Origin: Syntrophorhabdaceae bacterium
Lineage (GTDB): Bacteria > Desulfobacterota > Syntrophorhabdia > Syntrophorhabdales > Syntrophorhabdaceae
Length of the DNA: 64,000 nucleotides
Direction of reading: 5' to 3'
Assembly (NCBI GenBank): GCA_963665295.1
Contig: OY762209.1
Span: 3,712,001 to 3,776,000 of the forward strand
The notes under the pieces were generated by a model. It had not been told where the DNA came from. It searched no databases and worked only from the letters and a program-made list of their open reading frames with translations. Made by a program: the position numbers and the translations under genes. Shown piece by piece: positions 7,827 through 62,499 of this stretch (position 1 is the stretch's first letter; every line of letters starts with the position of its first letter).

Positions 7827-8230
7827 TGATAAAGCACATCTGGTCCATCCTGTGTGAGAAGGTTGTTACAGATAAGGACACAGGCGTCACGAGTTACTTA
7901 AGCGCTATCGAAGCGATTATTGTGAAGAGCGTGCCAGTTACCATGCCGTTCCTCGCCCTGGGAAGCTTGTGGCGGACAGATAATCCGGCGGGAGATAACC
8001 TGCAATTCAGAGTGTCGCTCATTCATCCTGAAAGCAAATGGGAAAAACAGTTGGTGACATCTGAGGGTACCTTGCTTGTGACAAAAAGGTATCGCTCTAA
8101 TGTTGTGATGAACGGTTCTGAATTCGTACAAGCAGGGACGTACATGTTCAAGGTTGAGGTATGCAACAATGGGAAATGGGAACAAGTCGCAGAGATACCG
8201 TTCGATGTCACTGTTGCTACGGAAAAATAG
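7826..8230 (+). CDS. DUF6941-like beta-rich protein, third gene of the hicAB operon
   Basis: TGATG overlap with hicB; ILCEKVVTD..TG and AGTYMFKVEV pattern. Confidence 0.6.
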   Translation: MIKHIWSILCEKVVTDKDTGVTSYLSAIEAIIVKSVPVTMPFLALGSLWRTDNPAGDNLQFRVSLIHPESKWEKQLVTSEGTLLVTKRYRSNVVMNGSEFVQAGTYMFKVEVCNNGKWEQVAEIPFDVTVATEK

Positions 8231-8273
8231 GGCACAAGGAAAGACAGCGAAAGGGCATCTGGATGAACGAGAG

Positions 8274-32085: not shown

Positions 32086-32096
32086 GGAGGATGGAC

Positions 32097-32744
32097 ATGT
32101 TTGGAACAAACGAAGCTACTGAAATTTTCGGCGACCTTATTTTTGAGAGGGCCAAGGACTGCAAGATCTTCGAAGAGGCTGCCGACGCGGGTGCCATCGA
32201 TGATTTTGCCAAGAAACAGATGCGCTCTCAGGCTATGGCTTGCGCCCTGACGTGGGTGGAGAATGGGGATTTTTCGTTTGGGGCCCTGTCCGATGCTGCC
32301 GCAACTATTGCCGATCTGGATGGAGACGAAGAGTTTTCAGACGATGAGCAGGCCTACTATAACGACCTTCTGACCGAAGTAGGCTATGCCCTTACCGCTT
32401 TGGGCGCGGATGCCGGAAACATCCAGTCCTTCATCGACAATGAAGATGACGAGGAAGGCGCGAAACTGGGGGCCTTCCTGTCAGAGAAGATGCAGGGTGT
32501 TGAACAGGACGACGAGACCCTTATCACGGATTATGCCGTGAGCAACCAGCCGATCATGGAATCGATGGTTAAGGTGGTCAGAAATGGACAGATCGCATTC
32601 AAAAAGAAAAGGATCGGCCGCCCTCATAAGATGACGGCGGCACAGAAGGCAGGCCTGAAAGTTGCCCGGAGAAGAGCCTTTACGGGCGCGGCAAAGCTGG
32701 CCAGAGCCAAATCGATAAGGATGCGACGCAAAAGAGGTATGTAA
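32097..32744 (+). CDS. Prohead core/scaffold-like protein (acidic body, basic C-terminus)
   Basis: IMES followed by KVVRNG...TAAQKAGLKVARRRA...RRKRGM. Confidence 0.6.
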   Translation: MFGTNEATEIFGDLIFERAKDCKIFEEAADAGAIDDFAKKQMRSQAMACALTWVENGDFSFGALSDAAATIADLDGDEEFSDDEQAYYNDLLTEVGYALTALGADAGNIQSFIDNEDDEEGAKLGAFLSEKMQGVEQDDETLITDYAVSNQPIMESMVKVVRNGQIAFKKKRIGRPHKMTAAQKAGLKVARRRAFTGAAKLARAKSIRMRRKRGM

Positions 32745-44886: not shown

Positions 44887-45480
44887 ATGATTCATATCGA
44901 TTTTGACAAATTCAACAAAGTGGGGTTGAAGCCGATTCTGGAAAAGTTCGAGAAGGAGGGTTTGCCGGTTGCCGGCGTGGAGGCCGATAACAAGGCGAAG
45001 CGCGAATCCGGATTTCAGGTAAAATCAGCAACCATCAACTTCGAGAGTGGGCAAAAACTTCTTGTGAAAACGAAAGCTGGCGGTTCAATTTTCCAGGTCA
45101 AGTTGAACAATAAAGTCTTGGCCATCAAGAACGTTGACGACCTCGACAAGGCTATCCAGGAAGTTATCGATTATGCCAAGGAAAATGAGAAGAACTATCA
45201 GAAACAGAGGGAAAAGCAACTTGCCCGGCAGAAAGTGAACGTTCCCAAGATTACGCCTGCCAACGCCTCGGTAGCAGAGCAGATCACACAGTACCAAGCG
45301 ACTCTTGACGAAACGAGGGCTGCCGACGAGGACCTGAGCACCCAAGTGACAGACGTTGAGAATACCAATGCCGAGAAAGGCAGTACTGTAAGTGTCCTCG
45401 AAAACGAACTGAACGGGTTGGTGGCCGCGGGAGAGGCCCTTCAAAATGAATATGACCAACTGAAGGAGGTGGCAGCATGA
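44887..45480 (+). CDS. hdf: Hdf-like protein (DarA N-terminal homologue)
   Basis: KRESGFQVKSATINFESGQ...GSIFQVKLNNK; directly upstream of darA. Confidence 0.75.
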   Translation: MIHIDFDKFNKVGLKPILEKFEKEGLPVAGVEADNKAKRESGFQVKSATINFESGQKLLVKTKAGGSIFQVKLNNKVLAIKNVDDLDKAIQEVIDYAKENEKNYQKQREKQLARQKVNVPKITPANASVAEQITQYQATLDETRAADEDLSTQVTDVENTNAEKGSTVSVLENELNGLVAAGEALQNEYDQLKEVAA

Positions 45481-47450
45481 ATCCGCTGACGGAGGGAAAG
45501 AAGATTACGCTGGGATATGACTATTTCGCTAAAGGCTTCACCGCCCCCCAGCTATTGGAGGCATATTACAGGCTGATTGCTGACAAGGAGCAGGCGCGTT
45601 TACTCTTTGAGACAGCCTCCATTGACCAAGTGGATGAGGTCTACAACCCCGGAGATGCCTATGACGAGAATGACCGGATGACGACCAAGGAAATGGTGAT
45701 GGAGGCTGTCTCGGTCCAAAAGTTCGCCCGAACGGATACCAAAATGGCGGCACTCGTACGTGTCTTCAATGCTTATCTGAAGGACAAGAATATTGAAGCC
45801 CAGGTGCCCATCATCGGTACACCAAGGAAGTCAGGCCTCTTCGCAACTGTGACTGTGCAGATTCCATTCAGCGACGGCCAAGTGGTGAGTATCATATTCC
45901 ACAGTCCGGACAACAATAAGATGAAGATCACGGCTGATGATGAAATCATTGCTTTCCGTTGGCTCCTGAACAAGAGGGACATCACTCACGTCGTTTCCCC
46001 GGAGAACGATGCCGAAGTCAGTTTGCAGGAAATCGGCAAACGAACCGCTCAATTGGTTGAAAAGAACAGTGCTCGCTTCCAGGCCATGCAAAAGGGTCTG
46101 ATTGAGCAGAAGAAGAATCTCGAAGAGATTAAAACACAGGCCGAAGAAGCAGTGAGACAGCACGATGAACTCATGGGCAAGCTCAAGGAAGGCCAGGGTG
46201 TCTTGGAGACGATAGATGCAAAGATTGCCAACCTGAAAGACCGGATAGTCAAGCAGAAAGCGTTTAACGATGATCTACAAACGAAGATCGACGCGCTGAA
46301 GGCAAAGCGGGCCGGGAATGATGGGAAAGCGGTAGGCGGGGATACGCCGAAGACGGAGGCAGAGATAAAGGCCGAGCACGAACGGGCTGCCTACGAAGAG
46401 AAACGTTCGGCGCTGGGAAGCGAGCTTACGGGTCGCGGGTTTATCGACAACGGCATGGGATGCGTATGGGATAAGGAAGGTTTCGGATATGCCCAGGCCA
46501 GTGGTGTGGATGGATACGGTATTACGGTCGGGCTTGCTGATGGAAGCAAGAAGACCTTCTCCTCGGCCACCCTCGCGGGATTCGACAAACAGGCCTCCAA
46601 CGCTCTCGCCTGGATCGACAAGAACCTTAAAGGGGTAGCGACTCCCGAGATCACGATTGACCCCGCTCTTTCTTCCATGGATGCGACTGCTGGTTTTGCT
46701 GAGTTTGTCGCGAAACAGGACGAGGGACACAATGAGGGTTACAGCCCAAAAGAAAGCGTCTTGAATATCGACGCCGTTGCAAAGAGTGAGGGTCTGGAAG
46801 CCCAATGGTCGGAAGGGGAGGATGACGGGATGCCAATTGCGGTTGGTACTTTCACTATATCGAATGGCAATCAGATCGGCGGGACCCAGATCAGCCCGGA
46901 CGGAAAGGCCGTCTTTCTTCTGAACGGCGAGCGGTACCGAGGTAGTTACTACCTGGCAACCGCCGATGGTGAGACCCAGGATGCGGCCGTGAAAGAAATC
47001 GCCGGAATCATCAAGGCGAAAGCCGAGAAGGACGAAAGGAGCAATCAGGCAGATGAAACGAATCGCCTTATCGAAGTAGGGAAAGGGGTAGTACCGGGTG
47101 TCCGTCTGCAGGACGCAGAAGAAGCAGGAAGATTGTGGGAAATGAAGGGTCGCGGCGAGTTGACCCAAGAGGAATGGGATAAGTACGTTGCCGATCTCCA
47201 GGCATCCAATAAGGTGGCAGCACCTGAGCCTCAGTCTAAGAGCTCCACGGAGACCGATGGCCCAGCAGCCATAAGCGTGCTCAACGATATCCTGGCAGGG
47301 AAGTACGACGACGATTCTACGAGGTTGGGCGAGGCCCTTGATCAGGCAGCTTCCGAACTGGAAAGGGACGGAAAAGCCGAGGCGTATGATGCGTTGCTTA
47401 ACCAGTGCGCCGATTACTTGACATCCATTCTGAAGAAGGAGGCAGCCTAA
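45477..47450 (+). CDS. darA: Defence-against-restriction internal head protein DarA-like
   Basis: IPFSDGQVVSIIFHSPD...AFRWLLNKRDITHVVSPE...LVEKNSARFQ; helical C-terminal domain. Confidence 0.85.
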   Translation: MNPLTEGKKITLGYDYFAKGFTAPQLLEAYYRLIADKEQARLLFETASIDQVDEVYNPGDAYDENDRMTTKEMVMEAVSVQKFARTDTKMAALVRVFNAYLKDKNIEAQVPIIGTPRKSGLFATVTVQIPFSDGQVVSIIFHSPDNNKMKITADDEIIAFRWLLNKRDITHVVSPENDAEVSLQEIGKRTAQLVEKNSARFQAMQKGLIEQKKNLEEIKTQAEEAVRQHDELMGKLKEGQGVLETIDAKIANLKDRIVKQKAFNDDLQTKIDALKAKRAGNDGKAVGGDTPKTEAEIKAEHERAAYEEKRSALGSELTGRGFIDNGMGCVWDKEGFGYAQASGVDGYGITVGLADGSKKTFSSATLAGFDKQASNALAWIDKNLKGVATPEITIDPALSSMDATAGFAEFVAKQDEGHNEGYSPKESVLNIDAVAKSEGLEAQWSEGEDDGMPIAVGTFTISNGNQIGGTQISPDGKAVFLLNGERYRGSYYLATADGETQDAAVKEIAGIIKAKAEKDERSNQADETNRLIEVGKGVVPGVRLQDAEEAGRLWEMKGRGELTQEEWDKYVADLQASNKVAAPEPQSKSSTETDGPAAISVLNDILAGKYDDDSTRLGEALDQAASELERDGKAEAYDALLNQCADYLTSILKKEAA

Positions 47451-47451
47451 C

Positions 47452-48912
47452 ATGCGACTCTCATTCTCTGAAAAAAGGGCACTTCAAAAGACCATTATGA
47501 CAAACCTCGCCAGCCTCCAAGGAAGTGATTTGTCCTTCCAGGACAAAAGACGGTTCCAGAAGGAAATCCAGGACGCCTTTGCCAAGCTCAAGGAGAAACT
47601 GGACATCGTTGATACCGGCGAACCACAGATGGGGCCTGCAACGATGGACGACGTCAATAATGTCATGCCTTTATTGCAACACTTTATCGGTGCATCCCAG
47701 TTAGCCGCGATGGGAGATGGCGTGCGGGGTGAGGAGGGACAATTCTTCAAAGACAAGTTTATCGAAATTGCCAGAACCATTGACGCCATGCCGAAGACCT
47801 ACGGTCAGGACGGCAAAGGTGACGATGCGATGGTGTACCTCCACTATTTCAAGGGTGGGTCCGATTGGTATATCACGGAAAAAGATCAAGAGACGGAGCA
47901 AGCCCAGGCGTTCGGTTATGCAATTCTGAATGGCGACAAGCAGAACGCCGAATTGGGGTATATCAGCATTGAGGAGTTGACAAAGCTCGGCGTCGAGCTT
48001 GATCTGTATTGGAGTCCCAAAACGCTCGGAGAGATCAAAGGCACCGCGCCCGCGCAGGGAAAAGCCTCCGGGAACGAAAATCAGAGACTATCTGACCTGA
48101 TTGCCGGCAAATACAATAACGAGCCACCGGAGGGGTTCCTGAAGATCTTGAAGGAGATCATAGAGGAAATCAACGACATTGAGCCTGTAAAGCCGCCCAC
48201 CATCACCTACATCGAGACGAACCAGGACAAGATCAATTCGATCATGGAAAGCGCCCTGGAAGAGGTCTTTGGGAGACTGTGGGAGAAGACGAGTGGATTT
48301 CCTCCTCGACCAATAGAAACATTGTCTTCGCCACAACCGGCCAGTGATGCCGTAAGGATCAAGAATCAGGACGGCGACTATGGGCCGCCGAGGAAGATCA
48401 GCATTGACATCGATGACGATTTCTATGGCCCGACCGCGTTTCGCGCGGTGATCAGAGCCATTGAAGAGGCCCGGGCGGGAGACACGATTGAAATCAAGGT
48501 GAATTCGAACGGGGGAGATACCCAGTCGGCACAGGCCATTTATGTGGCCTTGTTGAAGACGCTGGCGAAGACGAAAGCGATCATCATCAACGCCTATTCC
48601 GCGGGAAGCATCGTCGCAATGGCCTGCGATGAGATAGAGCCGACGCCATTCTGCAGCATGATGGTCCATAATGCTTCCACATTCAGCGGGGGTAAACTCG
48701 GGGACCTGGCTGGTAAGGCTACATTCTTGAATGACTATTTTGGTGAGTGGTATCAGCAGCTTTACGCCGGATTCCTCTCTGATGAGGAATTGAAGGACGT
48801 TATCAAGGGTCAGGATTTCTGGCTGAAAGAACCTCAGATAAGGGAACGCCTGAAGAACTGGAAACCGATCCGTCAGCGGTTACAGGAAAACGGAACGATC
48901 AAGGCTGCCTGA
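47452..48912 (+). CDS. DdrA-like protein with DUF2958-like insert and C-terminal ClpP-like protease
   Basis: Duplicated N-terminal helix; YLHYF..SDWYITE...ELGYISIEEL...DLYW; VNSNGGD, AYSAGS, MVHN, DFWL. Confidence 0.7.
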   Translation: MRLSFSEKRALQKTIMTNLASLQGSDLSFQDKRRFQKEIQDAFAKLKEKLDIVDTGEPQMGPATMDDVNNVMPLLQHFIGASQLAAMGDGVRGEEGQFFKDKFIEIARTIDAMPKTYGQDGKGDDAMVYLHYFKGGSDWYITEKDQETEQAQAFGYAILNGDKQNAELGYISIEELTKLGVELDLYWSPKTLGEIKGTAPAQGKASGNENQRLSDLIAGKYNNEPPEGFLKILKEIIEEINDIEPVKPPTITYIETNQDKINSIMESALEEVFGRLWEKTSGFPPRPIETLSSPQPASDAVRIKNQDGDYGPPRKISIDIDDDFYGPTAFRAVIRAIEEARAGDTIEIKVNSNGGDTQSAQAIYVALLKTLAKTKAIIINAYSAGSIVAMACDEIEPTPFCSMMVHNASTFSGGKLGDLAGKATFLNDYFGEWYQQLYAGFLSDEELKDVIKGQDFWLKEPQIRERLKNWKPIRQRLQENGTIKAA

Positions 48913-48913
48913 A

Positions 48914-51022
48914 ATGCCAACTCCGCTTGTCAAAAAGCTTGCCGAGGAAAATGGCATCGACATTCAGGAAGCCGAGAAGTGGTGGGATAAGGCAATGAAG
49001 ATTGTCGAGGAACAGGCCGGTTTGTCCGAGGATGATGGAGAAGACTACTGGAAGTATGTGGTCGGGGTTTTCAAGAAGTCCATGGGCGCCGGCGAGGATG
49101 ACAGCATTTCGGAAAGCTCCGGTGGCCGCCCTGGGAAAAAGGATAGGTTAAAAGTGGTATACCCCCAACGAGTCCGAGAAGCGAGGTCGTTCTCGGAGAT
49201 CCTGCAAATCTTCTCCATGCTGTTTCCGTACGCCGTGGATTCGCATTCATGGGATGCAGAATACGAGGCGGCAAAGAAATTCAGGGTTCTTTTCGAAGGG
49301 TTTCAACAGGAATCCGATGTTGAACGTAAATATGAGATTGCCTGCGAGATGGAGGAGTTCTCCCGGTCATTTCGTTATAAAGGCGGTTTTCTGACCATGG
49401 CTGGCGATGGTGCGGAGTCGAGAGAGGTATTGAAATTTGTGGCGCCCTCATCGATTGGCGCATTTCTTCTGGAAAGAAACTGTCAGGAGGGTGAAAACGC
49501 CATCGCAGAGATCATTCCCGATTACAAGGAGAAGTTGAGCGCCCAACGAGACCTTCAGGCAAGAATGGACCAGATAGAAAGAGATTATGGCCTTAATCTA
49601 TCCGACACGTTACTCAGGAAGAAGGAAGAGGTTGATTCCGCGAAGCGAGAGTGTGGCGTCCTTGGTCTGCAGACCAGAGCGGATGCGTTAAAAAATGAAC
49701 AATGGGAGTGGACAAGAAACCACACAAGGACTATGCCGCTTCGTAGTGAAGCAGAGGCTTATGCAAGGTGGCAGCGGGAGCTTGATGACTATAACGGAGA
49801 AAAAGGTAAGCGATTTCAAGAACTTATGGACAAGTCCTATGAACTCGAAAATATTCATGTAAAACCCGTGCGTGACAGATGGAACGCTGAGATCGCACAG
49901 GCCGAAAACGAGAGAAACAGAGAGGTTTCCCTCTTACAAGAGGCCGAGAGGGAGCTTGAGGACGCAGTCGGTGGAGCCCTTATCTTCAAGATACTGGAGT
50001 CATCTCCTGTAACCAAAGAAGATGCAGGCCAATGGGTAAAGAACCAGAGGGTGAGTAAGTCGGCAGTTATCCGACTGAAGAAGCAGGGATATGAAGAAAG
50101 TGCCCTTAGGGATCACATGGCCGAATTCTATAGACTGACAGGCGGAAGGATCGGAAAGGCTTTTATCGAAACGAAGGGAGACAAGAGGGCGAAGGCTGCC
50201 TTTTGGGATGGAACTATCTATATTGACGGAAGTTTTACGAAGCGGACCCTCTTTCACGAGATGGGGCACCTACTGGAAAGAGAGCCAAAATTAGAGGCCA
50301 TGGCAGAGACATTCCGTGACGGGAGGGCAAAGAAGGAAAAGGGAACGAAGACTCTGAAAAGCATCACGAACAATCCGGCGTACCGGTCTGATGAGGTCGC
50401 CTACACCGATGACTTTTTTGATCCTTATGTTGGAAAAGTCTATAGGAACAATTGCACTGAAGTGCTTTCCATGGGGACGCAAATGTTTTCTTCTCCTCAA
50501 GATGCCACGTTTCTGGCAAGTCGGGATCCACAGATGTTCAATATGATGCTGGGCTTCATGCTCTCCAAGCCCACTGCCCGCGAGATCGCCAAAAAAGAGA
50601 TGATTCAGGAAGTGGCTTCGGACATGGTGAGCGAACGAGACCGGCTTGATAAGTTCTACCAAACCCTGACGAAAAGGGCCAAGGATGGTTCGTTTTGGGA
50701 AGGGAAAGGCTCTGGATTGATTTCCAGGCTTGAAGGTTACGGCAACGGAAAGGGAAGCGGGAAGACAATGGTTCTTTACTACTATCCCGGAGATCTGCAG
50801 CAGGGACCGGGTGAGTATGTGCAGTCGAGCTTTTTCAAAAACAGACAGGCAGCAAAAAACTTTGCCTATCTCTACCTTCTTTATGTCCAGAAGGGAATCA
50901 TAACCAGCAAGGATGAAGCCTCCCGTCTCAGCTATGCCATAGCTAACTGTGTGCTGAGAAAGACAATACCTCCAAAACTGACAATTGACGATCTTCCAAC
51001 GTTTATCGAGGAGTTGAAATGA
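48914..51022 (+). CDS. Putative internal head protein with coiled coil and HExxH zincin-like domain
   Basis: TLFHEMGHLLE...YVGKVY...TEVLSMG; location in the dar cluster. Confidence 0.7.
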   Translation: MPTPLVKKLAEENGIDIQEAEKWWDKAMKIVEEQAGLSEDDGEDYWKYVVGVFKKSMGAGEDDSISESSGGRPGKKDRLKVVYPQRVREARSFSEILQIFSMLFPYAVDSHSWDAEYEAAKKFRVLFEGFQQESDVERKYEIACEMEEFSRSFRYKGGFLTMAGDGAESREVLKFVAPSSIGAFLLERNCQEGENAIAEIIPDYKEKLSAQRDLQARMDQIERDYGLNLSDTLLRKKEEVDSAKRECGVLGLQTRADALKNEQWEWTRNHTRTMPLRSEAEAYARWQRELDDYNGEKGKRFQELMDKSYELENIHVKPVRDRWNAEIAQAENERNREVSLLQEAERELEDAVGGALIFKILESSPVTKEDAGQWVKNQRVSKSAVIRLKKQGYEESALRDHMAEFYRLTGGRIGKAFIETKGDKRAKAAFWDGTIYIDGSFTKRTLFHEMGHLLEREPKLEAMAETFRDGRAKKEKGTKTLKSITNNPAYRSDEVAYTDDFFDPYVGKVYRNNCTEVLSMGTQMFSSPQDATFLASRDPQMFNMMLGFMLSKPTAREIAKKEMIQEVASDMVSERDRLDKFYQTLTKRAKDGSFWEGKGSGLISRLEGYGNGKGSGKTMVLYYYPGDLQQGPGEYVQSSFFKNRQAAKNFAYLYLLYVQKGIITSKDEASRLSYAIANCVLRKTIPPKLTIDDLPTFIEELK

Positions 51023-54000
51023 TTGAAGAGATGCAGTATCCGGTAACGCCCTATGCTTTCGACATCGAAACGTCTATGGGCGATCTGCGCATTGAGATGG
51101 AGTCCACGGAGTTTGATGCTCCTTCAAAATTCGAGATCAAGACCTATGGCGGGAATGCGGCTCCGGAATCGGTTTTGAGAAGATACTTTCATGAATTCGG
51201 GTTCGGGATGAGGGGCCATAGAATAGAGATGGAAGGTGATCGAGCCTTTCCATCCGATTTCTACCATGTTTTGACCATGAGCCGCACCTATCTTCAAGAG
51301 GGGAAGCAAAGCAGCATTCTCGACTTCCAAATTATGGGGTTTGTTCCGCGTAAAGGGTATGTAGACTTATTTGTCGGTCCAGAAGGTGATGGTGAAGACG
51401 ATAACATTTTGGAGAGCGCCGAGAGCGTTCTCATGACTCTCACGGGCAAGGAATTGGGCGAGAATATTGATTCAGAGAGCGCCGTCGAGGTAGCCAAGAA
51501 CTATTACAGAGCCAAAATGCAGGGGAAAATAGTAACACGGCCAAGCGTGGGCGATGTACGCTTTTCCGGCAAGGGATGGAAGAAATTCAGGCGAGGCATA
51601 ACAACGGACATCAAGAAGGCCAAACTACTGCCTGCGGCCCCTGTCGTCGTTCGACTCGGAAAGCACTCCGTCTCGGAACTCTACAAGAGCCGTCCCGATA
51701 ATATTGTCCGATTCCATTTTTTTGATGGGAAGATTGAACTCGAAGGCCAAGTCCTGCTTGTCGGTGTGACTGTTGGAGAAGACGACAGAGGTTGTCTCTT
51801 TTATAATCTCAATCATGACCCAGATGTTCTCATAGAAAAACGAAAGGCCCCAAGTTTGCCCAGGTTAGAAGCCCGGGGGTTGGAGCCCTCCATCGGGGAG
51901 CATGATGCTCACCGCAATAGAAGTATAGACGCAGAAGACCGTGATGTCAACATTACGGAATCTGCCTCCATCGATAGGGAAGCCAACAAAGCGGCGTCTT
52001 CTCCAAAAAATAGCCTTCCCGAGCCCACGGAGGCCCAAAAAGAAGCCGGGAATTACCGCAAGGGTCATGTGACTATTCGCGGCCTGGACATCGCTATCGA
52101 GAACCCCGCAGGGTCCGAACGGTCCGGTGTCAACCGGGATGGAAAGAAATGGACATCGAAGATGCGTCACCACTATGGCTATTTCAAAGGTACGAGGGGG
52201 CGCGACAAAGATCATCTTGACGTCTTCCTCGGTCCGGATCCCGAGAACGCAGACAAGGTGTTCATCGTAAACCAGACAAGCCAGGCTACGGGTTCTTTCG
52301 ATGAGCACAAGATCATGTGGGGGTTTGAAACTGAAGACGAGGCGCGTGCGGCCTATCTCTCCAATTACGAAGAGGGATGGCAGGGCCTTGGGAGCATCTG
52401 CACCTTGTTCGTTGACGAATTCAAGGACTGGCTGAAGAACGGAGACACTACTATACCGGTCGAAAGGGGGGTGACCGGGTCGTATCACCAAGACCCATCC
52501 TGGGTCGGTGTTGATTTGGACGGCACGCTTGCAAAGTACGACGGCTGGGTAGGAGAGGATCACATCGGTGAGCCCATTCCCCTCATGATGGCTTTCGTAA
52601 AGCGCCTCGTAAGGGAAGGCAAAAGGGTAAAGATATTCACTGCCAGAGCGTCAGACCCTGAGAAGATACCGCCCGTCAAGAAATGGCTTGAAAGGAATGG
52701 CCTGGGAGACCTTGAAGTAACCAACGTCAAGGATCAGAACATGACCATGCTTTATGATGACCGGGCGGCGAAGGTTATAGCCAACACGGGCGTCATCCTC
52801 GAGAAAGCACGCCAAAGCGCGATAATGGAACGCAGTCGAGCAACTTATTTCCGTGGTGCTGTTCAAGGGGCAGTTTCCTTTGACGACATCGAGGATGTTT
52901 TTGCTGCCACGTTTGGCCCTATCGTGGTCAAACGGTTCATATTTGGGGAGATATCGGAACTGGAAAATCAGATTAAGGCTATGCGTGAGAAGCTCGCTCA
53001 GGTGATGCTGGACAATGACGGTACCGGGATCGTCCAGGGAGAAAAGACGACCGCCTATCTGAACGACAACTCGCCCATTGATCTTCAGTATGCCGTGATC
53101 GGGGCGGATCGCCTTGTTACGTCTCATACCGACGAACTGTCTCTAAATCGGGACTTCTCGCAGGACCTCCAACCCCGGGATCGCGCCCGGGAGGGCATGA
53201 GGTTACAAGTCGAGCAGATGGCGGGTAAGCTGAATCCAGAACGCCTTGGAGAATCTACAAGCGTTTCAACGGGAGCACCCATCATTGGTCAGGACCTCAC
53301 GGTCGAATCAGGCAATGGACGGACCATTGCCATACGAAAAGCCTACACGGCGGGGGAGAAGGGTCAGGAATACAAACAATGGCTCGTTACGAATGCCGAT
53401 CAGTTCGGGATTTCCGGTAAAGCCATTGAGAGTATGGAAAGACCGGTATTGGTAAGGATTCGTCTTACGGAAATTGATCGTTCCGAATTTGCACGGAAAG
53501 CCAATGAAGACGAAATCGCACAGATGGCGCCTTCGGAACTGGCCAAGGCGGATGCTGCAAGGCTGACCAATGACGACATAGCCTTTTTTCAGCCTTCCGA
53601 TGATGGCAATATTGCGGCAACCACGAACCGAGCCTTTATCGCCAAGTTCGTAGAGAAGATGGGAGTTACCGCATCCACCGGATACATGACGAAAGACGGA
53701 AGATACACAAAGCAGCTCATTGACCGGGTGCAGGCCGCTATTTTTCAGAAAGCATACCAAGATGAAGACCTGCTGATTCTCATGGCGGAAGAAGCCGACC
53801 CGAAGATAAAGAACATTTTGAGTGCAATGACTGTCGCCGCGGGCGAATTCTCCGGGGCAAAGGCCGCTGACCAGGATCTCATGGGAATCGATATCCCACA
53901 TCACATCATAGAAGCTGCAAAACTGATAAAGAAGGCAAGGCAAGATGGAGATGCTATCGAGATGGTATTAGCCCAGGGTGGCTTTTTCGAAGCCATATCC

Positions 54001-54723
54001 GAAGATACGAAGCATATCACCCGATTCATCGACAGCAATATCCGATCCGCAAAACGCATGGGCGCCGTCTTTAAGGAGGCGGCGAGCATGCTCAAAAGGC
54101 GTCTGATAGACGAGAAGACACCTAAGTTGATCGCCATGGAAGAGCCATTGCCCACCCCGACCCAGATCCTCACCCGGGCCATAGAAAAGGAAAAGGCGGC
54201 AAGAGAAGTCGGCGAAAACCTTTTTGAGGCGGCCGGAGAATTTGACTGGCGGGAGGCTATAGAAGCCGCGGCAACTTTTGAGGATATTCAGGCCGTTTTC
54301 GAGAGTAAGTTTCCAGAAGTATTCAAAACCGGCAGGGGAAAGCAAACATTCCCTAAGCCTAAAAGAAATATGATGATCAATACCGACAATGGAGAGACAA
54401 CAATAAATCACCTCTTGTCACGCATGGCGCGTGCAAGAGGTGACCAGAAAAGAGACCTGTACTTGTCTACCTACGGCGACGATAGGCGCGCTCTCATAGA
54501 GGCGGCAATTCTGAAATTGCCGGCAGGGGAATACACACTGTCAATAGAAGGCAGGGCAGCGCCTTCACTTCAACGGACAATCATAGACAAATATGGGGTG
54601 TGGGTTGGGGTTGATGTCACTGAACCTCTTGTTCGGGGGATGGCGGTCAAGTATCCAGAAGCAATTCAAGCAACATTCACTCTTGGGTTACAGGAAATAA
54701 GAATAATTACGCGGAGGAGATAA
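51019..54723 (+). CDS. ddrB: DdrB-like polyvalent protein: LPD3-like, inorganic-pyrophosphatase-like, HAD-like and ddrB-ParB domains
   Basis: AGNYRKGH...DKDHLDVF...FDEHK; VDLDGTLA...LYDD; LQPRDR...GAPII...VESGNGR. Confidence 0.75.
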   Translation: MIEEMQYPVTPYAFDIETSMGDLRIEMESTEFDAPSKFEIKTYGGNAAPESVLRRYFHEFGFGMRGHRIEMEGDRAFPSDFYHVLTMSRTYLQEGKQSSILDFQIMGFVPRKGYVDLFVGPEGDGEDDNILESAESVLMTLTGKELGENIDSESAVEVAKNYYRAKMQGKIVTRPSVGDVRFSGKGWKKFRRGITTDIKKAKLLPAAPVVVRLGKHSVSELYKSRPDNIVRFHFFDGKIELEGQVLLVGVTVGEDDRGCLFYNLNHDPDVLIEKRKAPSLPRLEARGLEPSIGEHDAHRNRSIDAEDRDVNITESASIDREANKAASSPKNSLPEPTEAQKEAGNYRKGHVTIRGLDIAIENPAGSERSGVNRDGKKWTSKMRHHYGYFKGTRGRDKDHLDVFLGPDPENADKVFIVNQTSQATGSFDEHKIMWGFETEDEARAAYLSNYEEGWQGLGSICTLFVDEFKDWLKNGDTTIPVERGVTGSYHQDPSWVGVDLDGTLAKYDGWVGEDHIGEPIPLMMAFVKRLVREGKRVKIFTARASDPEKIPPVKKWLERNGLGDLEVTNVKDQNMTMLYDDRAAKVIANTGVILEKARQSAIMERSRATYFRGAVQGAVSFDDIEDVFAATFGPIVVKRFIFGEISELENQIKAMREKLAQVMLDNDGTGIVQGEKTTAYLNDNSPIDLQYAVIGADRLVTSHTDELSLNRDFSQDLQPRDRAREGMRLQVEQMAGKLNPERLGESTSVSTGAPIIGQDLTVESGNGRTIAIRKAYTAGEKGQEYKQWLVTNADQFGISGKAIESMERPVLVRIRLTEIDRSEFARKANEDEIAQMAPSELAKADAARLTNDDIAFFQPSDDGNIAATTNRAFIAKFVEKMGVTASTGYMTKDGRYTKQLIDRVQAAIFQKAYQDEDLLILMAEEADPKIKNILSAMTVAAGEFSGAKAADQDLMGIDIPHHIIEAAKLIKKARQDGDAIEMVLAQGGFFEAISEDTKHITRFIDSNIRSAKRMGAVFKEAASMLKRRLIDEKTPKLIAMEEPLPTPTQILTRAIEKEKAAREVGENLFEAAGEFDWREAIEAAATFEDIQAVFESKFPEVFKTGRGKQTFPKPKRNMMINTDNGETTINHLLSRMARARGDQKRDLYLSTYGDDRRALIEAAILKLPAGEYTLSIEGRAAPSLQRTIIDKYGVWVGVDVTEPLVRGMAVKYPEAIQATFTLGLQEIRIITRRR

Positions 54724-54726
54724 TAA

Positions 54727-57700
54727 ATGATTCTTGAAAGGGCTGTCCCGGATTGGAAATCGAAAGTTCAAGCGGCAAGCAGTTTCTTTGACATAGCGAC
54801 GGTTATCAAGACCCTTTTCGATCTGGAAACGGTCCCGGGGCAAGAGCCTCCGAAAGACCCAAACGACTACAAAGATGAAAATTCTGATTACGGTCTGAAG
54901 GTCAAGGGGATAAAAGCCCGCGAACGTCTCAACGAACAGGCCCGGGAGATCATCGGCCGCGTAAAAACCCCTGACGATCTGACAGACGCAGACCGGGAAA
55001 TACTGAAACAATATTCAGGAAGGGGGGGTCTTACCGAAAACTCCCAGTTTGAATACTACACGCCGACTCACGTGGCCGAGGGACTATGGGACGGCATGAT
55101 GACCAACGGATTCGCAAACGGGAATGTTCTGGATCCCTGCGTAGGTGCCGGCGTCTTTTCGGCGACTAAACCAAAAGGGGCAATCATCACCGGGGCGGAC
55201 ATTGATCCGGTCGGTTCAAGAGTCGCCCAGCTTCTCAATCCGGAAGACCTGATCCAAAGCCAGTCGTTTGAAAGAACCGTCATGGAGACCCCCGACGATA
55301 CCTTTGACGCCGTAGTCGGTAATGTTCCCTTCGGCAACGCGAGAGGAGCGAGCGCCCATGACGATCCCGATTACAAAAATGAAAAGCGCATCGAGCGCTA
55401 TTTCATTCTCAGAGCCCTGGACAAAGTGAAGCCAGGGGGGCTCTGTTGCCTGATCGTGCCTATCAATATCGTTGGCGCCAAGGGTGGACAGTGGGAGAAG
55501 TTCCGAATCGCATGTAGCAAAAAGGCTGAATTCCTCGGGGCCCATAAACTGCCATCCAAAACCTTTGCAGCTCAGGGGACCGACACCGTTGTGGACATCG
55601 TCGCCTTCAGAAAGCATCCGAAGGACTTCCTGGACAGGATAGATAACATTCCTTTCGATACCATGAAGGCCTCAAGGGTCATATGGGACGAATTCATTAG
55701 CGGACAATACTGGGTGGGCGAGGGGCGTCAATTCATCATGGGGAAGTGGGTTCCGAAAATTGAAGGAGATCGATGGAGCCGGGAAGTAGTGGATGGCGAT
55801 ATTGACAACGCGGGGCTAAAGGCGAAGCTCGCGCAGCGCTTTGAGTCCCGTATCAACTGGGACCTCCTTGAAGTGGCGGAGCCCATCATCAGAAACTATG
55901 TGGAGGGCGACCGGAAGATCATCAATGGCACCGAATATGAGTTGAGCAGTGGCCAGTGGTCCCGTGTAGTCAAGATTAATGATACCTCATTGACGATTGA
56001 TAGAGGCCGGTACGGCGCTGGGTCCTTGGACGAACTGAAAGCGGTACTGTCATCGTCTAAAGGGGCTTTGGCCCTGTCCGCGAAACAACTCTTTGCCGTC
56101 TTCAAGGCTTTCCCGGAATTCCTGACCCCCCTACAAAAAGCCTCCATCGAATTCGCCATGAGCCAACCGAAAGAAGAGTATCAGGAGCAACTTTTTCGGG
56201 GTTCGATCATCGGGGGCATGATAGCCCGTTATCAGAATACTGTCAACGATGGGACCGCCGAGGATGCGGACCTGCTTGAGCTTCAGGAGCTTGTTTCCAA
56301 GGAGATCGACACCTATGGACATCCCAAAAACAACAGGGGATTGTTGCTGACCGGTGAATCATCAAAGATGTTCGGCCTCTTCAAGAATGCCGTCGATGAA
56401 AAGGGTCAGTTCTCGGATCTTCTTGCAGGGACCATGGATGGGTCGGGGCGAACCTTGGAGTACGATTCGACCAACTTGCAGGCCATTGTGGAGCATCTCT
56501 TCGTCCGGGAAGGGATTCAGTCCATAGAGTTGGAGGACATCCAAAAACTCTACACGGGGAAACGAGAAATCAAGACACTGTCCGACCTTGTCGATGATGA
56601 TGCGTTGGCTATTACGCCCGATGGCTTTATCATGCCGATGGGACGCTATGCAGTGGGCGACATCTATCCTAAGGTCCAGGCCATGAGCGACGCCCTAGCG
56701 GTCGAAACGGATGAACGGGTCAAGGGCAAATACATGGAGCAGATAGAAGAGATTATGCGCCGGCGAAAGACAACGAAGCCGGAAGACATCTCTTTTGATA
56801 TGCGCCAAAAATGGTTCAGCAAGAAATATGTGATCGATTTTCTCAGGGAAAACGGCTATTCGCACCTCACCTACGGCACTATGGAAGAGGTCGTCAAAGA
56901 GAACCCCTATGACGGGAAGACTTTTACTGCACGTGCGCTGAAAGAGGATTACGATAATCCATTCGGCAGGTTCTCTGGAATTGACGATAGTAAGGGAGGC
57001 TTCCCGAAGCAGTTCCTCAAATACCTCAATGGCGAGAATGTTACGTCTTCCGGAGAAGACGCCCAGGAAAGAATCAAGGAGTACAAGGATCGATGCCGCA
57101 TTTTTGAAGAACAGTTCAACGTATGGATGCAACAGCACATCGAAATCAACGAGATAACCGAGCGATATAACCGGAAATTCAACGGATTCACCCCTTTTGA
57201 CTATGAGGATGCTGATCTTGGCCTGAAAGATGTCTCTCCTCAGGTAAGGCTTCATGGCTATCAGAATGCAGGCGTACGGCGATTATCTGAAGAGGGTCGG
57301 GGTATTCTGGCACACGATGTAGGACTCGGGAAGACTTTCACCGCTCTCGGTCTCTATGCCTATAACAAAAAGATGGGCCGCTCGAAGAAGACTTGCATCG
57401 TGGTGCCGAAGTCCGTACTTGGGAACTGGTATCACGAATCAAAGAAGTTCTTGGGAAACTGCGACGATGTTCTGTTTGTCGGATTTGAGCCGAAATTGGG
57501 CGACGGCGGACAGATCGAGCAGGAGGTTGTGAAGGATGAGAAAGGAAATCCGAAGGTAAACATACTCACTGGACAGCTTGAATATCAGGACATCCTCATA
57601 GAGAGAAACGGCAAAGAAGACGTGTGGGGGGCCATGTGGAGGATTCCGCAGTCAAACTATTCTCTCATCGTCATGACAAAGGAAAAATTTGGCATGATTC

Positions 57701-60700
57701 CCATGAGACCGGACAGCAAAAAGGCCTATGCGGATAAGATGGTTAAAAGATCGCTTATCAGTGAGAAAATGCACGCAGAGGCAACGAGCGACAGCGCCGC
57801 GACCAACGGTATGTCGGCGGAGAAGAGGGTCTCCTATAGTCAGGATGTTGAAAAGGCGAGGCTCGAACAGCAATTCTCCGATGAGGGAACGGCGAAGAAG
57901 GGGGAACTTCCTTACTTCGAGGATATGGGATTTACCGACGTGATCATAGACGAGTGTCATGAGTTCAAAAACAACATGCTTGGTGGGGAACATTATCAGG
58001 ATGTGGCATATCTCCCCACTGCTCCACCCGCGAAACGTGCCCTCGACATGACCATGAAGATGGCATACCTGCGTGATGCCAATAATGGCCGAGGGGCATA
58101 TATGCTCTCCGCTACCCCGGTAACGAACAGTCCGTTCGAGATATTCAACATGCTTTCCTATGTGTGCCCACTCGAAGAATTCGAGAGATACGGTATCTAT
58201 ACGCCCGATGATTTTATTCGCGTATTCGGGGAGATCATGAGCGTTGATAAGATGATGGTTGACGGGGGACTCAAGACAAAAGACGGGTTGAAGGGGTTTC
58301 AAAACCTCGACGGGCTTCGGAGTATGTTTCACAAGTATGTAAACATGAAAGGTGCCGATGATTTCCCAGATCAGATCAAGCTGCCTCCCCATGAGGAAGT
58401 AAGCCTCGACATCGAATTGACCGAGAAACAGCAAGAGGTTTACGCAATCTTGCGCGAGCGCGCGAAAGACGCTGCGAAGCCGCCACAAAAAGGAGAGAAG
58501 AAGGAAAGTATGTTCTCCGTCATCCGGGATATGGACCGGGTTACGACTGATATGGACCTATATAACAAAACGATGACCTTTGTCTTCCGAGAAGCAGACA
58601 GAGCCAATGTGGACGGCTTAGTAAAGAACCTCCCCCAGTCCATCAAGGTTAAGCGCGTCCTCGATGACGATGAGATGGATGCTCTCGGCCTTGATCCAGA
58701 GATGAACAAGGGTAAGGCCCAGGAAGTCACTGTCAAGCTCAAGACGGAATCACGAACGGAAAACAGCAGTTATATTGTCGTCTTTCCGAAAGAGTATGAG
58801 AATATCGTTATTGACCGCATCCCCGGAAACGGCATTGCAATGGAGAATGTATCGCATCCCCTAATGCCAAAGTATGCGAAGCTCATTGAGAATCTGCGCG
58901 CTGACCTTGAAACCGATGGAAAGCAGCTCATCTTTACCGAAGAGAAATCGCAGCATCAGAAGATTTTACGCCTCATAGTCCATCATATCCCGACTATCTC
59001 CAAACTGATTGGAATTATCAACGCGGATGAAGCAAAGGGAGAGGATATTCAGAAAATATCAGATGAATACAATTCCGGCAGTCTGAAATTCGTGATCTGC
59101 AATAAGAAGGCCGAGGTCGGAGTAAACCTTCAGAAGGGCACGACCGCAATCCACCACTTGACCCTTCCCTGGACCCCGGCGAGCATTCAACAGCGAAACG
59201 GCAGAGGAGTGCGCCAGGGCAATACGGCGGCCATGATCCATATCTACTATTACTGCGGTAAAGGGTCTTTCGACGCCTACCGCCTCGAGATACTGAAGGC
59301 AAAGTCGAACTGGATGAGGGACCTCTTCGACGGTACTGATGCAACGGCGGGGAATGCAAACGCCTTGAGCCAAGATGATATGATGGACATGCTCGAAGCC
59401 GATCCGGAGGCGGCGAAGAAAAGGAGGCTTGAGCGATTGGCGGCGAAGCAAGCCGAGGAAGCTGAGAAGGAAAAAAGGCGCCTTGCGAACCAATTGCAGG
59501 TGTTATCTCAAGCAAGTAGCGATCTCGCTGGTCTCGACGTTGCCAAAAAGGCAGAACAGGAGAAACTGACCAAAAGGGTGATGGACCTTGAGCCGGAGAT
59601 AAAGAGACTTCACGAGCGATGGTCCGCGGCTGAGGGAGACGATAAAGCGAGAATCGGTCGTCAGATAATGGAGAAAGAACAATCTCTGAAAAACGTGAAA
59701 AATAAGCTTTCCTCTCTTGACCAGACGTTCGAGCAGAGGCGGATCAAGCTTACATCCTCAGTAAAACAGGCGTCGGGACTCTTGCGCCAGAAGGCGAAAA
59801 AAGGCCAACTCCCCTTTGACGAAGCATTAATCGACCGGCCAGAAAGCGCCTGTGTGACACTGTCCGGCAAGGTAGTAGCGGTCGGGGATTGTTACGAGTA
59901 TCAAGGCGATTATTTCCACGGTATCATCAAAGTCGCGGAGGTTGATCCCATTGCCCGAGCCTTCAAATATGAGGAAATAGTGGGTAGGATTAACAATCAG
60001 GATATGGACCGTGCTCTCGATAAGAAGGAATGGGGATGGTATAAGGCCGAGAGCCTTGCAAAATTGGAACAAAAAGGCCTCACAAAAGTCTCGTATTCAG
60101 AGAAAGAACTCATGTTGAAGAAAATGTTAACTGAATCACATGATTATAAGACTCTAGTGGAAGGCAGAATTGACAAGGATATGTTCCTTACCTACCGGAA
60201 GGAGATCAACTGGGATAAACGCGCCATGTACGTTGTGAGGAGTCAAGACGGAACGACAACGATCACCGATGGCTACTCGACCAAGGACCTTGCCAATGCC
60301 ATTATCTATCCTGACGCGAAGAGCGACGGTTTTAGAAAGGCAGTGTGCGAGGGCTATTTACAACAAAAAAGGAGAGGGGGGTCCGTTTACTACGTCTCCG
60401 GCATGATGAGAATGCTCTTTGGTGACAACTATGAAGATGTCGCCATGGAATATGGCAAGACCGCGACAGAAGCCGAGGTAATAGAAGCGTGCGCAAAGGC
60501 ATGGAACGATCAATGGAAAGCAAAACGCCCTTACGGATGTGACAACCTCGACGAACTTGTAAACGCTTTGTTGGACAGAACGGTCAGCCGTGCGACTGTC
60601 CTGAGTGACACACGATCATCCATGAGATACGCAACCAGTGGGCTTGGAGACAACGATGAGCAAATAGAACTCATAGTAAACCAATACTGCCAGGATCTTA

Positions 60701-61089
60701 TGTCCAGCATCGATGCTGCCGTTGCAGCACAAAAGAGCGAAAAGGAACGTGCGGCCAACGAGTCCTTAAAAAACGATCCACGATATAAGGAAGTGCCGCG
60801 GGAAGTCAAGGACGCATTTGACAAGATCGGAATAACGGTCAAAACGAATACTACAAATATGGCTTTGCCGGGATTCAAAAGGCGCCGTGGGGTTGTTTTG
60901 GAGCCCTTTGCACGGTGGTTTTTTCAGGATAGGAATGGAAAGAGTGGTGCGCTCTTCAGAACAAAAGATATTCTGAAAGCGCGTTATGGGGCTCAGTTCT
61001 TTTCGGATGCGGGGGAAGCGTTCAAAGGGGCTTGGTGGCACGTGCCTTCGGCAACGGACTTGAAGGCAATCTATGAACTAATTGCATAA
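54727..61089 (+). CDS. darB: DarB-like N6-adenine methyltransferase / SNF2 helicase fusion
   Basis: YYTP, VLDPCVGAG, GNVPFG; AHDVGLGKT, IDECH, LSATP, QRNGRGVRQGN. Confidence 0.92.
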   Translation: MILERAVPDWKSKVQAASSFFDIATVIKTLFDLETVPGQEPPKDPNDYKDENSDYGLKVKGIKARERLNEQAREIIGRVKTPDDLTDADREILKQYSGRGGLTENSQFEYYTPTHVAEGLWDGMMTNGFANGNVLDPCVGAGVFSATKPKGAIITGADIDPVGSRVAQLLNPEDLIQSQSFERTVMETPDDTFDAVVGNVPFGNARGASAHDDPDYKNEKRIERYFILRALDKVKPGGLCCLIVPINIVGAKGGQWEKFRIACSKKAEFLGAHKLPSKTFAAQGTDTVVDIVAFRKHPKDFLDRIDNIPFDTMKASRVIWDEFISGQYWVGEGRQFIMGKWVPKIEGDRWSREVVDGDIDNAGLKAKLAQRFESRINWDLLEVAEPIIRNYVEGDRKIINGTEYELSSGQWSRVVKINDTSLTIDRGRYGAGSLDELKAVLSSSKGALALSAKQLFAVFKAFPEFLTPLQKASIEFAMSQPKEEYQEQLFRGSIIGGMIARYQNTVNDGTAEDADLLELQELVSKEIDTYGHPKNNRGLLLTGESSKMFGLFKNAVDEKGQFSDLLAGTMDGSGRTLEYDSTNLQAIVEHLFVREGIQSIELEDIQKLYTGKREIKTLSDLVDDDALAITPDGFIMPMGRYAVGDIYPKVQAMSDALAVETDERVKGKYMEQIEEIMRRRKTTKPEDISFDMRQKWFSKKYVIDFLRENGYSHLTYGTMEEVVKENPYDGKTFTARALKEDYDNPFGRFSGIDDSKGGFPKQFLKYLNGENVTSSGEDAQERIKEYKDRCRIFEEQFNVWMQQHIEINEITERYNRKFNGFTPFDYEDADLGLKDVSPQVRLHGYQNAGVRRLSEEGRGILAHDVGLGKTFTALGLYAYNKKMGRSKKTCIVVPKSVLGNWYHESKKFLGNCDDVLFVGFEPKLGDGGQIEQEVVKDEKGNPKVNILTGQLEYQDILIERNGKEDVWGAMWRIPQSNYSLIVMTKEKFGMIPMRPDSKKAYADKMVKRSLISEKMHAEATSDSAATNGMSAEKRVSYSQDVEKARLEQQFSDEGTAKKGELPYFEDMGFTDVIIDECHEFKNNMLGGEHYQDVAYLPTAPPAKRALDMTMKMAYLRDANNGRGAYMLSATPVTNSPFEIFNMLSYVCPLEEFERYGIYTPDDFIRVFGEIMSVDKMMVDGGLKTKDGLKGFQNLDGLRSMFHKYVNMKGADDFPDQIKLPPHEEVSLDIELTEKQQEVYAILRERAKDAAKPPQKGEKKESMFSVIRDMDRVTTDMDLYNKTMTFVFREADRANVDGLVKNLPQSIKVKRVLDDDEMDALGLDPEMNKGKAQEVTVKLKTESRTENSSYIVVFPKEYENIVIDRIPGNGIAMENVSHPLMPKYAKLIENLRADLETDGKQLIFTEEKSQHQKILRLIVHHIPTISKLIGIINADEAKGEDIQKISDEYNSGSLKFVICNKKAEVGVNLQKGTTAIHHLTLPWTPASIQQRNGRGVRQGNTAAMIHIYYYCGKGSFDAYRLEILKAKSNWMRDLFDGTDATAGNANALSQDDMMDMLEADPEAAKKRRLERLAAKQAEEAEKEKRRLANQLQVLSQASSDLAGLDVAKKAEQEKLTKRVMDLEPEIKRLHERWSAAEGDDKARIGRQIMEKEQSLKNVKNKLSSLDQTFEQRRIKLTSSVKQASGLLRQKAKKGQLPFDEALIDRPESACVTLSGKVVAVGDCYEYQGDYFHGIIKVAEVDPIARAFKYEEIVGRINNQDMDRALDKKEWGWYKAESLAKLEQKGLTKVSYSEKELMLKKMLTESHDYKTLVEGRIDKDMFLTYRKEINWDKRAMYVVRSQDGTTTITDGYSTKDLANAIIYPDAKSDGFRKAVCEGYLQQKRRGGSVYYVSGMMRMLFGDNYEDVAMEYGKTATEAEVIEACAKAWNDQWKAKRPYGCDNLDELVNALLDRTVSRATVLSDTRSSMRYATSGLGDNDEQIELIVNQYCQDLMSSIDAAVAAQKSEKERAANESLKNDPRYKEVPREVKDAFDKIGITVKTNTTNMALPGFKRRRGVVLEPFARWFFQDRNGKSGALFRTKDILKARYGAQFFSDAGEAFKGAWWHVPSATDLKAIYELIA

Positions 61090-61917: not shown

Positions 61918-62322
61918 ATGAATATCTACAAGCCCTCTGAAAATGATTTGCAACCCCTATTGGATCAGGCCACGGCCAATCAGCCAGTTGATCAGTGGAT
62001 AGACAAATTCCTGGCAAATCTGAAGGCCATCCTTCTCAAGAGCCCGCTTCGCTACCGAGCTTATGGACCATACTGGTGGCTGCTGAAAAAAGCCTATATC
62101 GATAAGGAGGATTTCTCCTTTGGAGGCTTTCTTGACCGGGAATGGCTCTCAACCATGGACTACGGTAAGCCAGAATTGAATATTGTGGCCGCCTTCCTCT
62201 ATGAGGATATGAGAACGGCCAAGAACATGATCGATGATCCGTTCCACGTTATGGAGACGGTAGACGGTGGAGATGCGATTGAATTCGGCTCCAACGATCC
62301 AGAGATGGAGATGAAGATATAG
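61918..62322 (+). CDS. ulx: Ulx-like DarB packaging factor
   Basis: LLKSPLRYRAYGPYW..LKK matches P1 Ulx as recalled; downstream of darB. Confidence 0.75.
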   Translation: MNIYKPSENDLQPLLDQATANQPVDQWIDKFLANLKAILLKSPLRYRAYGPYWWLLKKAYIDKEDFSFGGFLDREWLSTMDYGKPELNIVAAFLYEDMRTAKNMIDDPFHVMETVDGGDAIEFGSNDPEMEMKI

Positions 62323-62419
62323 CCCTTGAAGGGGGGCATGTATTTAACGATTTGACAAGCTGCACGGGCAGTTTTTGGCGCGGGGCCGGGAGACTGGCCC
62401 CCTATTCCCGCATCGTTGC

Positions 62420-62471
62420 CGCAATCCTTCGTTTTTCTATCGCAATCCTTCGTTTTTCCCCTATTTTCATT
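62420..62471 (+). promoter_or_regulatory. Putative late regulatory element, copy 2
   Basis: 51/52 identical to 27931-27982; ends 28 nt before the portal ATG. Confidence 0.7.
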
Positions 62472-62499
62472 TGCCTGCCTATCTTCTTTAATCTTAGTT

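Follow-up and report, generated by a model that had tools for sequence, protein, structure and literature searches.

A repeated candidate capsid address tag and predicted prohead-protease sites in the Dar head-cargo operon of a P1-like prophage

How might a single phage head be loaded with a series of dissimilar enzymes, several of them strung together in one polypeptide? The question is raised by a stretch of 64,000 nucleotides from a Syntrophorhabdaceae bacterium (the window, at its full length of 64 kb), which comes from a genome of 5.5 Mb in a single contig and contains the late region of a P1-like prophage. The genes follow each other in the order terminase, capsid, tail, hdf, darA, three cargo genes, darB, one further gene, ulx and portal, and by sequence homology the locus is the Dar head-cargo operon of that prophage. 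A 22-residue motif found there in four copies, called tag A here, is very probably a targeting signal. The account that we favour, by a modest amount, is that tag A would be a capsid address tag docking on the C-terminal domain of DdrA, and that sites at the borders of the cargo modules would be cut by the prohead protease Pro.

Tag A is a real and conserved feature, significant in this lineage. The original prediction, made from the letters alone, had pointed to four related motifs in three genes, each preceded by an [I/L]-x-E motif; they are indeed exact translations of 49160-49225, 52849-52914, 54247-54312 and 54754-54819, with ISE-S, IME-R, LFE-A and ILE-R lying 15, 6, 6 and 5 residues ahead of the respective copies. 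With a leave-one-out position-specific scoring matrix (PSSM), the copies were equalled by 6, 1, 1 and 1 of 1,595,757 host-proteome positions (p 6e-7 to 4e-6), and the one strong host match is itself a real orphan copy of tag A. A six-frame scan of the whole genome with a hidden Markov model (HMM) returned the four copies at E 6e-12 to 3e-9 (they were part of the training alignment), the orphan copy at 4e-5, and a weak match, at 0.036, in a 30-amino-acid frame. The consensus of 35 copies is W[RK]xA[IV]xxAxSF[DE][DE]IxxVFxxLF, modelled as two helices with a predicted local distance difference test score (pLDDT) of 85.6. Across P1-like phages the motif recurs, both at the N-termini of DarB and DdrB-type cargo and in the interior of polyvalent proteins that have been shuffled. 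Over 33 related loci (187,023 amino acids) all matches of at least 15 bits lie downstream of darA, on DarB or on cargo genes, at a protein N-terminus or in a polyprotein interior; weaker ones (9-14 bits) took in tail proteins. At the cut-offs used, 120 DarB homologues carry, before the methylase, tag A only (92), a second motif, tag B, only (14), both (2) or neither (12). Among ParB polyproteins, tag A was found in 14/18 close unfused ones, 1/20 intermediate, 0/46 distant and 0/23 fused to DarA. Outside the P1-like phages, the search covered this ParB polyvalent set and a scan of 400 genomes of the phylum, whose two other matches at E<1e-3 were both rejected as chance: one is, by our own reading, the C-terminus of a methylmalonyl-CoA-mutase-like protein, and the other lies in a non-phage region. 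No Pfam model corresponds to tag A, and a PDB sequence search gave no meaningful match, the best being a designed coiled coil at E 0.073.

The orphan copy begins an open reading frame (ORF) 1.8 Mb from the prophage (G000:C1:1890244-1890675, minus strand; L106:4245-4676). The strong tag A is followed there by a PHROG 22413 domain, PRTase-like by eye and interrupted by stops; the frame lies just downstream of a tRNA-Ser gene and beside an IS630-like transposase, and is probably a remnant of another P1-like element.

The features of the operon are listed below, with a slash marking each predicted cut.

28107-29714, +: major capsid protein, 31% identical to P1 gp23, with a predicted propeptide cut VLE115/A (28443-28451)
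32022-32744, +: late protein with sites IFE and IME, PHROG 1053 by sequence match
44887-45480, +: Hdf homologue (PHROG 1620, Pfam DarA_N)
45477-47450, +: DarA, inner-capsid anchor (Pfam DarA_N), with predicted propeptide sites LFE45 and VME76/A (45696-45704)
47232-47447, +: C-terminal helical domain of DarA, kept at most aligned DarA C-termini; likely receptor of tag B
47452-47589, +: tag B, the N-terminal helical hairpin of DdrA (gene 47452-48912), aligning with the P1 DdrA N-terminus
47674-48036, +: PHROG 5203 cargo domain lying within the DdrA linker and not flanked by sites
48067-48249, +: DdrA C-domain (PHROG 1855, DdrA-like), likely receptor of tag A, ending at the predicted site IME266/S
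48394-48876, +: ClpP-like cargo (Pfam/PHROG) fused behind the DdrA site, untagged; only some relatives have ClpP
49106-49114, +: predicted site ISE67/S (VLE in the orthologues of L008 and L010)
49160-49225, +: tag A copy 1, from the translation, carried by the zincin cargo of gene 48914-51022
49886-50632, +: zincin module, like the C-terminal half of P1 DdrB (PHROG 20397/2299; HEMGH motif read directly)
51406-51804, +: predicted site ILE132/S, then an LPD3 module (Pfam) without tag
51952-52437, +: predicted site ITE314/S, then an InPase module (Pfam) without tag
52504-52767, +: HAD-like module with DLDGT (PHROG/Pfam)
52795-52830, +: tandem predicted sites ILE595/K and IME604/R
52849-52914, +: tag A copy 2, at the head of the DdrB-like ParB module, from the translation
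53065-53463, +: ddrB-ParB domain (Pfam PF18763); by its homologues the ParB module extends to about 54228
54220-54228, +: predicted site LFE1070/A at the end of the ParB module; by comparison LFE441/S in P1 DdrB and MFD in Aeromonas
54247-54312, +: tag A copy 3, at the head of a variable C-terminal module, from the translation and relatives
54730-54819, +: DarB N-terminus with predicted site ILE4/R and tag A copy 4 (54754-54819), placed where P1 DarB has its capsid-targeting signal
54727-61089, +: DarB methyltransferase-SNF2 helicase (Pfam/PHROG)
61918-62322, +: Ulx homologue (PHROG 1629)
62416-64000, +: portal (PHROG), continuing past the window end
G000:C1:3776188-3777213: prohead protease gene pro, just outside the window after the portal

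The domain labels first proposed hold up, LPD3, InPase and ddrB-ParB by Pfam, the HAD-like and ClpP-like modules by PHROG and Pfam, and the zincin by its HEMGH motif; for gene 32022, which had been called a core protein, that role is unproven and PHROG 1053 gives no function. The idea that every module bears its own tag fails: tag A sits on DarB, the zincin, the ParB module and the variable C-terminal module, and LPD3, InPase, HAD and ClpP have none. The InPase-HAD junction lacks a site in the window phage and has one in the relative L014, and relatives in general hold the same modules in another order and with other partners. Of the shared injection platform first imagined, the targeting-type helix motif, the prohead-protease-type border sites and the plug-in architecture are retained on comparative evidence, and the tags on all modules are given up; we infer that the cargo is cleaved and injected.

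What, then, might tag A bind? The gene at 47452 is DdrA and carries a second, unrelated tag, both of which had been overlooked. Its product has an N-terminal hairpin (tag B, with helices 4-22 and 28-46 in the model of a relative), an inserted cargo, a C-domain, and ClpP behind IME/S. By hhalign, tags A and B are unrelated, and some DarBs carry tag B in place of tag A. The C-terminal domain of DarA resembles the DdrA C-domain (hhalign probability 69%, E 4.4e-5, over 31 columns) and is the likely receptor of tag B. For tag A, the co-occurrence pattern points to DdrA: in the 28 of 33 loci that were scored (5 were lost, DarB being missed by the script), tag A stands on DarB in 21/21 loci with the DdrA C-domain, and the 7 loci without it show tag A once (borderline, score 8.1), tag B in 3 and neither by HMM in 3, several of the unscored or "neither" DarBs being hairpin-like by eye. 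The pair of DdrA C-domain and tag A, picked beforehand from this pattern, scored 0.50 in complex prediction against 0.02 for the best control, with at least 93% of contacts common to the runs and a partner pLDDT of at least 67. The mark applied is reached by 116/157 solved and 2/215 mismatched pairs, with 18 of the solved ones and both mismatches at 0.60 or below, and the prediction lends weak support to binding. The balance tips towards DdrA as the receptor of tag A; it is more likely to be so than Ulx, which is probably not the receptor. Loss of ddrB is said, in work by Piya in 2017, to improve protection, as competition for DdrA would predict. The P1 order of Hdf/DarA, DdrA, DdrB, DarB and Ulx (PMC12810830) fits the proposed adaptor chain. 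A Foldseek search with the DdrA model gave no match at E 0.001. A "half-motif" behind IME/S of DdrA (ALEEVFGRLW) is like helix 2 of tag A, yet was set aside, having no tag-level score.

Residues 1-30 of P1 DarB suffice to direct a reporter into the capsid, and a signal common to Dar N-termini was suspected in the same study, with no consensus found (PMC9024508). Tag A lies at the same place in the window DarB. When a model trained on the window lineage only, without gammaproteobacterial sequences, was run on 11 gammaproteobacterial DarBs, the N-terminal or anchored window came out first of about 2,250 in 6/11 and among the top 5 in 10/11, with Xenorhabdus failing and a search window up to 45 positions wide. 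With a broader model, trained without P1 and without gammaproteobacterial DdrB sequences, the DdrB or zincin N-termini of D6, Vibrio, Photobacterium, Aeromonas and Spartinivicinus score 9-23 (the host 1e-4 level being 8.1), and in P1 DdrB residues 558, 3 and 615 take ranks 1, 2 and 3 of 982. Tag A is likely homologous to the P1 DarB signal; since P1 DarB 4-25 scores poorly alone, the identification rests on position and on intermediate sequences.

The consensus of the T4 prohead protease is [IL]-x-E. Sites of this kind, which had been placed at domain borders by the original prediction, are found there (ILE-S 51406, ITE-S 51952, IME-S 48241), as are those of the capsid, gene 32022 and DarA, and the pattern [ILV]xE[SAR] first suggested stands ahead of 25/33 internal tag copies against a background of 0.15. 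A strict motif, [ILVMF][LFM]E within 30 residues upstream of a tag, was then counted in 84 tag copies (dereplicated from 135; 33 internal and 51 near an N-terminus). It precedes 28/33 internal tags, with a background of 0.12, and 31/51 N-terminal ones, with 1.5 expected; control patterns before the internal tags gave K 1/33, Q 0/33, D 0/33 and reversed 4/33. Independently of tags, breakpoints of module shuffling lie within 15 residues of a site in 37/92 cases (13.6 expected). Sites also stand ahead of the untagged LPD3, InPase, PBECR and HAD modules, and xLE[SA] occurs 1.95 times per 1,000 amino acids in cargo, as against 0.28 in tail and baseplate, 0.42 in the DarB body and 0.41 in the host. 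The capsid site VLE115/A of the window aligns with MLE120/S of P1 gp23, a cut mapped by Edman degradation (PMC9024508), and DarA VME76/A aligns with P1 LLE68/A, the density of P1 DarA beginning at residue 70 (PMC12810830). The border sites [ILVMF]-[LFM]-E are predicted to be cut by Pro, probably a T4-type prohead protease, and the internal ones quite probably are cut. Whether the ParB module ends in a site was also tried as a test, but it was dropped for want of discrimination (14/18 vs 31/46). In many relatives the ParB module ends in QxxLF or QxxMF (window 54200-54228; P0128-P0133, P0051), and one protein stops there; the site that ends the module overlaps the QxxLF-type motif in many of them. 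We take this ending to resemble a sliding-clamp-binding motif, which a cut would expose at the C-terminus.

The Pro of this prophage shares 32% identity with P1 Pro (E 1e-43), for which the supplement of PMC9024508 gives an HHpred match of 99.44 to the T4 structure 5JBL; searched by sequence against Pfam and the PDB, the Pro of the prophage itself gave no protease match. In several phages Asp replaces Glu at the maturation sites of the capsid, DarA or Pro, which suggests Asp-specific prohead proteases. Cargo sites number 10 E:2 D in 5 E-type phages and 9 E:18 D in 7 D-type phages (Fisher p 0.006), in a table that excludes Spartinivicinus, in which the relatives are not independent and three D labels were assigned by eye. 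A Pro residue near the conserved His was tried as a marker of this specificity and abandoned on a counter-example (L144). The Asp-type loci (L096, L097, L098, L099, L108, L117, L101 and L094) belong to P1-like phages or plasmids of Vibrio, Alteromonas, Photobacterium, Aeromonas, Xanthomonas and Pseudomonas. In another relative (L007:12552-14162), Pro has about 195 extra N-terminal residues, cargo-module-like and starting at an ILE/S site, so that the protease gene itself may carry cargo.

Put together, the favoured account would run as follows. As shown in P1, the inside of the capsid wall is lined by DarA and Hdf; the DarA C-terminal domain would hold the tag B hairpin of DdrA, whose C-domain would bind DarB, the zincin protein and the ParB polyprotein through tag A; and the untagged LPD3, InPase, HAD and ClpP modules would enter as fusions. 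At maturation Pro, the presumed enzyme, would trim the capsid and DarA propeptides (a trimming shown in P1) and split the polyproteins into single enzymes; tag A, lying behind the cut, would be kept on the mature piece, and the pieces would likely be ejected together with the DNA. The wider notion of a programmable delivery platform, with a daisy chain of paralogous receptors (DarA C-domain for tag B, DdrA C-domain for tag A), a maturation protease whose Glu or Asp specificity depends on the lineage, and several tags on P1 DdrB competing with DarB for DdrA, is advanced tentatively, at a little below an even chance.

A number of points weigh against this account. On the receptor, 5/33 loci dropped out of the DdrA table, and ddrA may lie beyond the fetched stretch. 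On the tag, P1 DarB 4-25 ranks 5-7 of 2,242 (p about 1e-3), with a score of 1.5 at rank 7, several non-tag positions of P1 equal the DdrB copies in score, and a P1 DarB deletion of 11-30, which takes away most of helix 2, is tolerated while deletions of 16-30 and 21-30 are not (PMC9024508); no site lies ahead of the N-terminal DarB tags of P1 and other gammaproteobacteria, and some "internal" tags may be the N-termini of over-extended ORFs. On the cuts, the strict pattern was fixed post hoc, from data already seen, and P1' is Arg or Lys in 35/68 sites before tags, without experimental precedent in the excerpts of the literature consulted. The substrate cuts of phage SPN3US all take off N-terminal propeptides (PMC10052503), so that internal splitting of polyproteins would exceed that precedent, and a 76 kDa DdrB product (PMC5512222) is at odds with a cut at residue 441. 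The E/D label requires 3 changes on the tree and is compatible with a single origin, the relatives not being independent, and D-type cargo retains 9 E matches while Spartinivicinus shows 2 E:0 D.

Several other explanations have to be set beside it. Tag A might be a real signal on polyproteins that stay whole, the internal xLE sites being relics of fused "MILE-tag" starts, docking motifs for the prohead core or, after ParB, part of a sliding-clamp-binding motif. A Met directly before ILE at many internal tags would fit this, as would the QxxLF/QxxMF ending at which one protein stops, the retention of the site in D6 and L029 with next to nothing behind it, and the packaging or transfer of polyvalent proteins uncut (PMC5512222). 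But the sites also precede untagged modules at shuffling borders, they are often paired in tandem, and their E/D choice goes with that of the capsid and Pro sites; an exposed linker like the capsid cut site would be expected to be cut inside the prohead; we regard this alternative as unlikely.

Nor is it likely that tag and cuts hold with a partner other than DdrA, be it Ulx or the tag itself, or with the tag serving mainly as a leader for ejection of the mature pieces. Ulx aids localisation of P1 DarB (PMC9024508, Table 1), the tag is kept past the predicted cut, internal copies would be redundant for packaging a whole chain, and the complex support for DdrA is weak. Tag A nevertheless tracks the DdrA C-domain (21/21 vs 1/7) and is gone where the cargo is fused to DarA (0/23); Xanthomonas Rb1, without the DdrA C-domain, has an Ulx-sized gene after darB (its identity assumed from position), and in P1 the packaging of DdrB precedes that of DarB and Ulx (PMC12810830).

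Processing by the zincin of the cargo itself, along the lines of the autoproteolysis of DdrB by its MPTase proposed by Iyer et al. (PMC5512222), or by the ClpP-like domain, appears very improbable: both domains are in the operon, but the sites match those of the capsid, DarA and Pro itself, ClpP is present in some relatives only, and the DdrB of D6 lacks the zincin half, yet capsid-type sites stand in D6 DarA and Pro. A reading of the repeats as amphipathic helices that arose by chance, with Glu motifs at background level, can be dismissed for this lineage on the PSSM, related-loci and site-enrichment results, short though the motif is and in spite of the two chance matches in 400 genomes.

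Where does this leave the operon among known systems? With P1 Dar, whose proteins are packaged, injected and protect DNA in cis against type I restriction, it shares homologues of Hdf, DarA, DdrA, DdrB, DarB and Ulx along with portal, Pro and a gp23-like capsid, the position of the DarB N-terminal signal, and alignable propeptide sites in capsid and DarA. It differs in that ddrB is present as two separate modules, the zincin part being a tagged gene of its own and the ParB part a tagged module within a larger shuffled polyprotein, that DdrA bears two extra cargoes, and that the element sits in the chromosome. The polyvalent proteins of Iyer et al. 2017 (PMC5512222) have LPD3, InPase, ddrB-ParB, PBECR, ART, MPTase and DarA-N in common with it, together with late-gene context, proposed processing and the analogy to polyproteins, and here too several disparate conflict domains are found per chain, in late genes, shuffled between relatives; in the excerpted passages, however, zincin autoproteolysis is proposed and neither cut sites nor a targeting motif appear. 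Diverse injected cargo with one signal is known from the internal proteins and Alt of T4 with gp21 (PMC7411985, PMC3012670), as is a protease cutting after Glu, to which the substrates of SPN3US gp245 are comparable (PMC10052503). Tag A is, however, C-terminal to the predicted site, occurs internally as well, and seems to use a dedicated adaptor, and some lineages have Asp; unlike the N-terminal propeptide signal of T4 it follows the predicted cut and would be kept, and so falls outside the T4 definition of capsid targeting.

What is likely new within P1 Dar is DdrA as a likely adaptor, tag A, and the residues of the sites. Searches of full text in which subscription papers are scarce, PMC12707154 and PMC10695390 included, brought up no shared Dar tag, no Pro-type sites inside DdrB-like proteins and no DdrA adaptor; the passages cited give no molecular role for DdrA beyond that of EcoA antagonist, and a 2026 cryo-EM study was unable to place DdrA, DdrB, DarB and Ulx. 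Such a tag, with a candidate receptor and cut sites at residue level, would account for the stepwise order of Dar packaging, and would be a testable answer to the question of a common Dar signal left by the P1 study (PMC9024508). If the account is true, DdrA gains a function, the processing of polyvalent proteins gains a named protease and sites, and the rules could guide the loading of reporters or enzymes into P1 heads.

Several smaller observations concern the cargo and its surroundings. In some relatives DarB is fused behind DdrA, ParB or InPase modules (P0015, P0060, P0050, P0074; L096:15129-22175), and the junction keeps site and tag A. In the lineage P0138-P0158 the ParB module is fused directly to DarA, with tag A absent and xLE[SA] sites nearly so. 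Several different cargo genes (window 48914-49105; L017:15750; P0019; P0107) have, ahead of a site, a small mobile module at the N-terminus (…YWKYVVGVFKKSMG), and a conserved module of about 120 amino acids, with an acidic linker at its end, heads many polyproteins (window 51019-51400; L015:15098; L096; L107:12627); by eye it is like the small gene after ddrB in P1-like phages, and is possibly another docking unit. A search around the prophage for an attachment site, tRNA genes included, found no convincing direct repeat. To the left of the phage late region, window positions 7314-10300 hold, by eye, a HicB-like gene, a DUF-type gene and lipoprotein-like accessory genes. Intein-like insertions are present in several DarB homologues (L015:17986-20925; P0020, P0032, P0038).

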